64,000 nucleotides of DNA, from assembly GCF_041248615.1 (NCBI RefSeq), contig NZ_CP158425.1. The stretch is one strand, 5' to 3'. Origin of the DNA: Escherichia coli. Lineage in GTDB: Bacteria; Pseudomonadota; Gammaproteobacteria; Enterobacterales; Enterobacteriaceae. This document shows positions 12,001-15,000 of the stretch, one piece after another. Numbering within the stretch: position 1 is the first letter of the stretch; every line of letters begins with the position of its first letter. A program made the position numbers.

Positions 12001-15000
12001 GCGCTACAGAACACAGGTATTGAAGCTATTTTAGATTCAACAAATGTGTTCCAGGTTGAACCTGTCGTAGAGAACGATATAAATAACAGCACGTTTTCAA
12101 ACACTGATCCTGTAGCTGAACCTGAGAAATCAGTTTCGCAACAGGAAGACAATGTTGAAAATTGTTTTGATATCGAGCTCAAAGGCTGGTAACTGTTTGC
12201 TTTATTAAAAACCCCAGATGGGTACTTCACCATCTGGGTGAGTACCCCTTTTTTATAAAGAGGTATTCTATGAAATTAGATCTTAAATCATCACCGCGCC
12301 ATATTAAGCGTTTACAGAATATAGCAAAAGTCATTAGCGGCTTAGGCGATGTAAGAGTTGTAATAGACGACAATACCAAAGGACCGTATTTTGATCCTGT
12401 AAATAAAGTTTGTGTTTTACCAAACGGCGATTATAGCGATGATGACTTTGTCAGTCTGATTGAAGGTTTTACCTGTCATGAAGCTGGTCATGGTCGCTAT
12501 ACCGACAGCGAGGTTTACAGTGACGCCTTTAATAGTGTTCTCAAGTCATCTGAAGGGTTTACACGCTTCGATGACGGAATGAATGCAGAGTTTGAGAGCC
12601 TCGCTGAGAAACGTAAAGCTTATAGCAGGGCAAAACGTCTTACCGGGCTTATAAATCTGTTCGATGATGTACAGATGGAAGAGAAGGTTGGTAACGATTA
12701 TCCGGATGCAAAGCGGCGGCTTGCAGCCACTTACGCACTGATGGTTAAAGCCGGAAGGATGACTCCTGATATATCTTCTCGTCCGGAAAATCCTGTCCTA
12801 TTTATTGAGTGGTATCTGCTTAACTCATTGCGAGTAAAAGTCCTTCAGCAGGCAGGTCACAAAGAAACACTCGATCCGTTTTTTGACTATGCCCAAAAGA
12901 TACTTTCTCCAGTAATTTCTGATGTTGAGGAAATTTTTCATGATGCTCTTGGTTGTGAAAATACTCAGGGCTGTGAATCCCTTGCTCGTAAGACCCTGGC
13001 TCTTTTAGAGAGACTGCGGGATGAGGCAAGGGAACAACAGCAGCAGACAGAGCAGGAGGAGCAGGAGGCATATGATGAATCCGAGACCGAGACCGATACC
13101 GATACCGATACCGAATCAGAAGATAAATCGCTTGAGTCGACTGATAGTCGTGAGGATGATTCTGAGGACGATAGTGAAGGTCAGGCAGATACTTCCGATA
13201 ACTCTGATCTTGCTCAAGAGGGATGTTCTGAGCCTTCAGAACTTGCTGAAGATAACGAGGGAAATAATGAACCCACCGGTGGCAATCCCACAGGTGATAA
13301 CATTATTGAAGACGATACTGATGCGATTAACCCTTCCGAGAGTGAATCAGATGAAGCCAGTTCGACTAACGTTGAAGATGAAAGTAACTTTTCATCGGCT
13401 CAATGGGAGATACTGGCAGATTTGTTGGATGCCTTTCTTGGCAGTGATGAGGATAGCGAAGATTATCACGATGCTTTGGCTAAAGAGATTGAAGGTATTG
13501 CATCAAAAGTATCCGATGACGTGAAAGCCGAATTCGGTGCTTCTGAATGGGATATCCCTGATCTCCTTATCGATTTGAATGTTTACAATGAGGCTTTGTC
13601 TCTGAGTCATTCAATCGGTAGCGACTTGTCTGTTTTACAGCAGGTTAAAATGCGTGGCCGAAACAAAACTCATGAGCGTGGAATTACCTTCGATGGAAAT
13701 CGATTAATTCTGTCACCAATGGGAGTTCGTGATGTCTTCAGAGCTCAAAGCGAATCTAAAAATAGAGGGCATGTTGGCCTCGTATTAGTTCGTGATATTT
13801 CAGCGTCAATGGCTAATGATGAAAGATATATTCATGCCATTAAGTCAGATCTTGCTTTATCGATGGCCGCTGAAAGTTTGTCAAAAATGCATGTCTCCAA
13901 TATAGTCTTTCCCTTCAAGGAAAGTGAATTTGAGATTATCAAAACGTTTGATCAAAGCGTTGAGGAATCTCTATCGAAATTCACTCTTGGATGTAAGGGT
14001 TATTATACCCCTACGGGATCGGCTTTAATGGCAGCTGTTGATCTGTTACTTGACAGCCAATTCGATAGGAAAATAATTTTTCTTATAACTGATGGTTATC
14101 CGAATAAATCGGAATTTACTATCGGCGAAGTTATGGAAAAGGCTAAATGTAATGGAATAGAAATCGTTGGTGTTGGTATTAAGACTGATGAAATAATTGG
14201 TTTTGAAACGGACACTTTCGTAACAGTTGATGATACTTCTTTATTGTCTATTGAAGTCAGTAAGCTAGTTCATCAAATACTTTCTTAATAAACTCTACCC
14301 AATCGGGGCAAAAGGCCCCGGTGGGTCTTTTTGCTCCATGAAGGAATAAGGAGCAAAATATGACTCAGATAAAAACTTACCGTGTAGAACATGAAAAAGT
14401 CGGTGCGATGCATAAAGTCCGTATTTTCGGACGTGTTGGTGAAGTTATAAGCAATGATAGCCCTCAGGAAAGAATCTTCCGCGAAGTCACTATAGCGGAG
14501 GGTAATAGCCAGCAGGCTGCGTTACTTGTAGATAACTACATACAGCGTCTTGAGAATAATGGCTTCACGACTGAAGCATAAATGTTGAGGGCCCCCGGGC
14601 CCTCTTTCTTAAATTCTGCGTTGTGGGTTTCTCCCTGTCTTCTGCACCGCAGAAGGCATTGAGAAACTCACAATGCCAGATAAGAGAGATCATCATGACT
14701 TATGCATCCCCGGCTCTTCGTCGTAATCCACAGGAAGTATCTGAACACTTTATTAAACTCGTTCATGCTCGAATTGCTGAAGTGTCTGGCTGGAAGTATA
14801 TATTCGAAAGAATACCTGCTTTCAAAGACGCTTGTGCAAAAGCCCCGAGCCAGGTTCCTTGCCCGTTTACTGGCGCAGGGAAATCGAAGTTTCGTTTCCG
14901 ACAAAAAGACCTTTATACCGGATGTGCGATCCATAATGACTTTCCGGTAAATGAGTTTTGCGACGGAATTGATGTTCTGGCGAAATATTATGAATTAAGT

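Follow-up and report, generated by a model that had tools for sequence, protein, structure and literature searches.

Does the number of units in a short hexanucleotide array, embedded in the gene for a VWA protein on an IncHI2 plasmid, vary among related plasmids, and if so, does this variation switch the gene, tune its product or simply drift? We addressed this question for a stretch of 64,000 nucleotides from Escherichia coli (contig NZ_CP158425.1, here called the window), for which the initial annotation had described (GAGACC)2(GATACC)3 encoding ETETDTDTDT in the acidic linker of a VWA protein and had proposed a hotspot of in-frame length polymorphism. The array, two GAGACC followed by three GATACC units on the + strand, lies at 13083–13112, with coordinates and frame exactly as annotated. 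It is read by the ORF 12270..14288 (+), where (13083 − 12270)/3 = 271 places it at codons 272–281, and its peptide is preceded by YDES and followed by ESEDK. The relevant features are as follows:

9638–10696, + strand: gene for an AAA_5 (MoxR/CobS-like) ATPase that probably partners the VWA protein (AAA_5, 98.2 bits).
11053–12192, + strand: gene for a DUF3150 protein, between the ATPase and VWA genes (Pfam).
12270–14288, + strand: host gene of the array, encoding a VWA protein of 672 aa (ORF, Pfam, alignment and model).
13020–13385, + strand: acidic low-complexity linker, aa 251–372 (composition and model).
13050–13068, + strand: neighbouring 9-bp direct repeat GAGCAGGAG, 2.1 copies, encoding EQEEQE (TRF and IncHI2 alignment).
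13081–13114, + strand: full extent of the 6-bp periodicity, 5.7 copies (TRF).
13083–13112, + strand: hexanucleotide array, copy-number polymorphic in IncHI2 (sequence, TRF and plasmid census).

TRF reported the periodicity with period 6, 96% matches and a score of 54, the second-highest among 19 arrays in the window; no other array combined a copy number of at least five with ≥90% match. The flanking CC and GA included in this interval would give an extra register for slipped mispairing. The degenerate 18-nt pattern GAKACCGAKACCGAKACC had a single site in the window, the array itself, and 0 matches in 100 dinucleotide-preserving shuffles. Two adjacent sub-arrays can be distinguished, GAGACC encoding Glu-Thr and GATACC encoding Asp-Thr. 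All five Thr codons of the array are ACC, which encodes a minority (8 of 30) of the gene’s other Thr residues; under the gene’s own codon usage, five identical Thr codons have a probability of ~0.024 and exactly these ten codons, given the peptide, of ~1e-4. The repetition is therefore one of DNA, attributable to duplication by slippage, and not of the peptide alone, and the identical codons in each unit point to a recent duplication. The 9-bp repeat GAGCAGGAG was invariant across all IncHI2 sequences compared. Two ORFs overlapping the region were rejected for want of coding evidence: 13021..13524 (+, another frame), in which the repeat would encode PRPRPIPIPIP and which no record annotates, and 12820..13071 (−).

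The placement of the array inside an acidic linker was borne out by composition and domain content, with 48 D/E and 3 K/R among the 122 residues of aa 251–372 and a Pfam VWA match at the C-terminus (31.7 bits, cut-off 23.8). Alignment with IncHI1 and Klebsiella homologues divided the protein into three regions: a conserved N-terminal domain, a linker conserved in neither sequence nor length, and a conserved C-terminal VWA domain. The N-terminal domain is helical, carries a conserved HExxH motif (CHEAGHGRYT, aa 69–78) and matched no Pfam family. In the VWA domain, the MIDAS motif DxSxS reads DISAS (residues 509–513), with D509, S511 and S513 invariant in the same alignment. An AlphaFold2 model built from an eight-sequence alignment was of low overall confidence (mean pLDDT 56), so that its coarse features alone are usable; it showed residues 271–372 at pLDDT <50 and devoid of secondary structure, directly preceded by a long helix (232–271). 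The array is thus predicted to sit at the N-terminal edge of a ~100-residue disordered acidic linker between the HExxH and VWA domains, which would act as a flexible tether. Foldseek searches with this weak model returned NorD of the NorQ–NorD complex as the best match, then MDN1/Rea1 MIDAS domains and integrin I domains; all significant matches were to the VWA domain, and none placed the HExxH domain.

The window represents IncHI2 plasmid backbone. Its VWA gene matched 1,121 PLSDB plasmids at ≥95% identity and was 100% identical to that of E. coli pM160133_p1 (typed IncHI2A, MOBH, MPF_F). Downstream of trhI, the gene is part of a conserved run with the order AAA_5 ATPase, DUF3150, VWA, a 73-aa ORF and a DUF7146/Toprim protein; IncHI1 plasmids and the Klebsiella IncHI1B/IncFIB plasmids keep the AAA_5/DUF3150/VWA arrangement. 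A MIDAS-bearing VWA domain encoded beside an AAA_5/MoxR-like ATPase identifies the locus as a MoxR-class AAA+/VWA gene pair. As in CobT/CobS, BchD/BchI and NorD/NorQ, the VWA gene adjoins an AAA_5/CobS-like ATPase, the MIDAS is intact and the VWA domain follows an acidic stretch. Unlike those systems, the plasmid protein has an HExxH N-terminal domain and a DUF3150 gene separates the pair, and the trio resides in a conjugative-plasmid backbone rather than in a cobalamin or nitric oxide reductase operon. For the ATPase, matches to CobS and to ‘porphyrin biosynthesis’ phage families scored far under curated thresholds (CobS profile, 34.4 bits versus a cut-off of 558). We likewise rejected an assignment of the VWA protein as CobT, the VWA subunit of aerobic cobaltochelatase: the CobT profile TIGR02442 gave 33.8 bits versus a cut-off of 779, a phrog ‘CobT subunit’ match (E = 2.4e-4) was restricted to the VWA part, and no test applied here identified a chelatase. 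PADLOC anti-phage defence profiles did not match the VWA, DUF3150 or toprim proteins and gave marginal generic P-loop matches only for the ATPase. Across Pfam, NCBIfam, PHROGs, PADLOC, a PDB sequence search and Foldseek, the trio received domain-level labels only (AAA_5, DUF3150, VWA), and our literature search found nothing on the function or interaction of such a trio on IncH plasmids.

To describe alleles, we write the number of GAGACC units plus the number of GATACC units. Arrays were read directly in 20 IncHI2 plasmids and the window. Allele frequencies were then estimated for 1,118 IncHI2 plasmids in PLSDB by short allele-specific queries and BLAST identity bands, with sampled rows read, so that all counts are approximate. 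Unit counts, whose comparison among homologous plasmids had been proposed with the initial annotation, were not identical, and seven alleles of two to six units were recovered:

1+1: 11 of 1,118 plasmids; read in S. Cubana NC_021845 and C. freundii pOZ181.
1+2: ~435 of 1,118, R478 (NC_005211) among them by match length; read in Enterobacter pCTXM9_020038.
1+3: ~581 of 1,118, obtained by difference; read in Chinese E. coli, Salmonella, E. fergusonii and Klebsiella plasmids.
2+2: 9 of 1,118; read in E. coli pYLMB15a.
2+2*, with AATACC as the last unit: 2 of 1,118; read in S. Albany pN18S1350.
2+3: 74 of 1,118; read in the window, pM160133_p1, pJMA2, pS38, pF1022-1, pF18S019-1 and pATCC43845.
3+3: 4 of 1,118; read in S. 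marcescens pQC08_1 and E. coli pTZ41_1P.

All alleles differ by multiples of 6 bp and keep the ORF open, as expected of the in-frame polymorphism that had been postulated in place of an on/off switch. The two sub-arrays change independently, each occurring in one to three copies. When representatives were aligned, every 6-bp or 12-bp gap fell exactly in the array. Product lengths across the alleles are 666–674 aa (1998–2022 coding bases); match lengths of 2019, 2013 and 2007 bp had appeared in the first plasmid search for the gene, and lengths of 668, 670 and 672 aa were also present in a 90% protein cluster of a large collection. The ORF was intact and annotated in nearly all plasmids, whatever the allele. 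Hosts of 1+2 were mainly Enterobacter, Klebsiella and Citrobacter, and those of 1+3 and 2+3 mainly E. coli and Salmonella.

How mutable the site is was assessed by comparison with its surroundings. A backbone segment of 28.3 kb common to 14 plasmids was aligned to the window (15 sequences). Thirteen plasmids and the window formed a close group, 1 to 25 SNPs apart, with an R478-like 1+2 plasmid as outgroup at about 305–313 SNPs from each member. Among the 15 sequences, indels longer than one base were confined to the array and to one further site:

26871–26895: second hexanucleotide array, TCTTCA, in a tyrosine recombinase gene (backbone indel comparison).

The rest of the backbone had one-base indels only, of which nearly all fell in homopolymer runs and most came from one old, error-prone assembly. 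With 70 substitution sites in 28.3 kb, the close group would be expected to show ~0.07 substitutions per 30 bp; for the array, the minimum is three unit changes within this group and five overall. Several of these events were independent, since 1+3 and 2+2 are equal in length but different in composition and must have arisen separately. In addition, 3+3 occurred on two haplotypes 19 SNPs apart with no SNP exclusive to the pair, 2+3 was found on at least four haplotypes, and no SNP separated carriers of 2+3 from those of 1+3. The backbone also recombines, as sites 762 and 25839 failed the four-gamete test and pYLMB15a was mosaic, and the apparent recurrence of 3+3 on two backgrounds and of 2+3 on at least four haplotypes could in part reflect allele transfer by recombination. 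Besides the divergent R478-like plasmid, the haplotypes formed a star-like group; together with recombination, this made a clean tree only partly achievable, and event numbers are therefore given as minima.

We consider the array most probably (roughly 85%) an in-frame hexanucleotide slippage polymorphism, effectively neutral, in the disordered linker of a plasmid-backbone VWA protein. During replication, slipped-strand mispairing would occasionally let the nascent and template strands re-anneal with a shift of one 6-bp unit, each slip inserting or deleting a single dipeptide, Glu-Thr or Asp-Thr. Since the unit length is divisible by three and fixed structure is lacking in the linker, every product would be full-length and presumably functional. 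Effectively neutral variants would then drift to fixation within plasmid lineages and so come to mark them. Independent change of both sub-arrays is expected here, since slippage acts between identical neighbouring units. The array shares with known in-frame coding microsatellites and VNTRs the multiple-of-three unit, the identical codons, the whole-unit changes in a maintained ORF, the disordered acidic setting and the lineage-specific length alleles. Compared to hypervariable VNTR typing loci, it is very short (two to six units, with sub-arrays of one to three perfect copies), and for this reason mutates slowly and acts as a lineage marker.

Homologues outside IncHI2 suggest that the linker tolerates such changes. 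By tblastn, VWA-protein homologues were found on 2,053 plasmids. IncHI1 orthologues, ~68% identical, have no repeat at the position of the array, where DDTDESSGSENE is found instead. The Klebsiella IncHI1B/IncFIB (pNDM-MAR-like) homologues are ~35% identical and share the AAA/DUF3150/VWA/toprim arrangement. At the same linker position of this orthologous gene, they carry an array that is likewise in-frame and length-variable, with 25–43 copies of the 9-bp unit GATGACTCT/GATGGCTCT encoding (DDS/DGS)n. Their proteins span 637–694 aa, and at least eight distinct match lengths occurred among 16 sampled records. With its longer unit, higher copy number and wider range, the Klebsiella array qualifies as a true minisatellite; that of IncHI2 is minimal. 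Tandem arrays thus arise repeatedly in the linker and are tolerated there, which supports weak constraint on its exact length.

The same setting could also be read as adaptive. If linker length or charge set the reach or affinity among the VWA/MIDAS domain, the HExxH domain and the AAA+ partner, unit number would be under selection, and different hosts or lineages would favour different lengths. Acidic linkers recur in VWA proteins, such as BchD and CobT, that partner MoxR-class ATPases. Along with this recurrence, the C-terminal fold match to NorD and the gain of repeats by the linker region in separate branches of the family are compatible with such tuning, as is the correlation of alleles with lineages of differing host range. 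That correlation is, however, completely confounded by some 300 SNPs linked to the alleles in the backbone, and the lineages do not converge on a single length. Each step, moreover, alters just two residues of a disordered segment of ~100–120, and differences of as many as 57 residues are tolerated among the Klebsiella homologues. We therefore regard selection on unit number as unlikely. An extension of the idea, in which the linker is an evolvable ‘length dial’ whose arrays arise repeatedly and allow selection to tune MoxR–VWA activity of IncH plasmids by host, appears improbable as well. The analysis gave no sign that repeat number alters function.

Another reading dispenses with raised mutability: a few ancient one-off indels would mark clades and be shuffled by recombination, the site itself mutating no faster than its neighbours. 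Stability within lineages is indeed high, with all 23 sampled 1+2 rows spanning 219 bp and ~30 sampled four-unit rows spanning 225 bp, and the backbone recombines as described. The plasmid pSSE-ATCC-43845, of IncHI2-ST4, is described as coming from a 1941 isolate (PMC7355605). It carries 2+3, as modern plasmids still do. On the other hand, at least five unit changes in 30 bp compare with one other multi-base indel site in 28 kb, itself a hexanucleotide array; the changes within the close group exceed the number predicted from substitutions; and 1+3 and 2+2 cannot share one event. An unremarkable site with a handful of old indels is hence a distinctly improbable explanation.

The proposal of a length-polymorphism hotspot accordingly stands relative to the surrounding 28 kb, where multi-base indels are limited to the two hexanucleotide arrays, and has to be qualified in tempo. 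The array is a hotspot compared with its surroundings yet a slow one: it is not hypermutable, and its practical behaviour is that of a stable lineage marker. Alleles are essentially fixed in large lineages, and 2+3 has persisted since 1941, which identifies a lineage marker rather than a fast-varying contingency locus.

Repeat collapse or expansion during sequencing or assembly is a very remote explanation for the alleles. Four records (L003, L004, L007 and L019) do carry errors, all of them single-base homopolymer indels and never 6-bp units, while the array, at ≤36 bp, is shorter than any read, and its alleles, besides being linked to lineage SNPs, are each found in identical form in independent assemblies, tens to hundreds per allele, from varied laboratories and platforms. 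Iterons, a binding site or another function at the DNA level received no support, given that the array is part of a coding sequence, its copy number varies and the IncHI1 orthologue lacks it. Phase-variable on/off switching, which a tandem repeat inside a coding region might suggest, was rejected with near certainty, as a unit length divisible by three permits no frameshift, the ORF is open in all seven alleles, and an array internal to the ORF with low copy number has kept its alleles stable over decades.

The polymorphism is real, ordinary and probably neutral, a textbook case of in-frame slippage in a disordered linker. It is a new instance of a well-known kind of polymorphism, with no published mention found in the literature searched. 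For automated comparisons, proteins of 666 to 674 aa should be treated as products of one gene, and the 6-bp gaps as neither errors nor indications of separate families. IncHI2 plasmids are major carriers of mcr-1, mcr-9 and blaCTX-M genes. Together with the TCTTCA array at 26871, the array offers a cheap additional subtyping marker for them, scorable by PCR size or read inspection. Like the IncHI2 double-locus typing scheme (smr0018/smr0199), which uses different loci, the repeat alleles subdivide the backbone into lineages; we found no mention of the VWA gene or the repeat in literature using that scheme. On a partial mapping to sequence types, the alleles broadly follow the major lineages, with 1+2 in R478. 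The array also splits ST4 into 2+3 and 3+3 forms, as pTZ41_1P of this type carries 3+3, unlike pSSE-ATCC-43845 with 2+3. For pNDM-MAR-like and hybrid virulence plasmids, the far more variable 9-bp array of the Klebsiella homologues could provide a VNTR with real discriminating power.

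Length variation in the VWA gene extended beyond the hexanucleotide array of the IncHI2 backbone. In the homologous gene of five Klebsiella and Shigella IncHI1B/IncFIB plasmids (records L009-L013), we found a 9-bp in-frame minisatellite (GATGACTCT/GATGGCTCT, encoding DDS/DGS) with ~25-43 copies, for example at positions 975-1362 of L010 and 972-1193 of L011. Homologues carrying this minisatellite had protein lengths of 637-694 aa, with at least eight match lengths among 16 sampled plasmids, and the repeat could serve as a discriminating VNTR for pNDM-MAR-like plasmids. Within the window, the following features of the VWA gene (12270-14288, plus strand; 672 aa) were considered.

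12474-12503, plus strand: HExxH motif CHEAGHGRYT, aa 69-78 of the VWA protein
13050-13068, plus strand: 9-bp direct repeat GAGCAGGAG, 2.1 copies (EQEEQE), just upstream of the hexanucleotide array
13083-13112, plus strand: hexanucleotide array in the acidic linker

Unlike the hexanucleotide array, the neighboring GAGCAGGAG repeat showed no variation in any examined IncHI2 sequence. The cysteine, both histidines, the glutamate and one glycine of CHEAGHGRYT were invariant in IncHI2, IncHI1 and Klebsiella homologues. The N-terminal domain bearing this motif had no Pfam match and was not placed by a fold search; a metallopeptidase-like or metal-binding role for the module is conceivable.

In Enterobacter cloacae pSTN0717-73-1 (AP022520.1, record L008), an insertion sequence element with annotated transposases splits the VWA gene from position ~1175 of that record onward. 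The insertion lies ~25 bp downstream of the hexanucleotide array, corresponding to window position ~13137, and cuts the protein to 287 aa. Because a 287-aa member was also found in the 90% cluster of VWA proteins, this truncation indicates that at least some hosts can dispense with the gene.

A second hexanucleotide array was located in a tyrosine recombinase/integrase gene.

26871-26895, inside minus-strand ORF 26585-27775: in-frame TCTTCA array, four units

Read on the coding strand as GAAGAT, it encodes the acidic loop NDEDEDEEDT. This array was polymorphic too, with one additional unit in the window, pJMA2, pS38, pF18S019-1 and pF1022-1 relative to the other compared IncHI2 plasmids, in agreement with integrase genes annotated at 1182 bp versus 1176 bp.

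Across the IncHI2 backbone (window 1-28353 compared with records L015-L028), haplotypes formed a star-like group, except for the divergent R478-like plasmid. Recombination was evident, as the four-gamete test failed at sites 762 and 25839. In pYLMB15a, derived SNPs of the Chinese group with one GAGACC and three GATACC units (1+3 allele) were present only upstream of ~9.1 kb and absent downstream of ~14.5 kb. One record, pATCC43845 (CP019195.1), contained ~20 single-base homopolymer deletions in 28 kb relative to all other plasmids, and many of its genes lacked annotation. These deletions are almost certainly sequencing errors, and the record is therefore unfit for indel or frameshift inference.

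Beyond this aligned region, the window carries an insertion that most related plasmids lack.

30741-35477: insertion
31997-33622: ORF within the insertion, whose protein sequence is identical to that annotated as MCR-1.1 in pTB31P1

The MCR-1.1 ORF lies between two ISApl1 transposase genes that are identical to each other and inverted relative to one another; one starts at ~30827 on the plus strand, the other at ~33891 on the minus strand.
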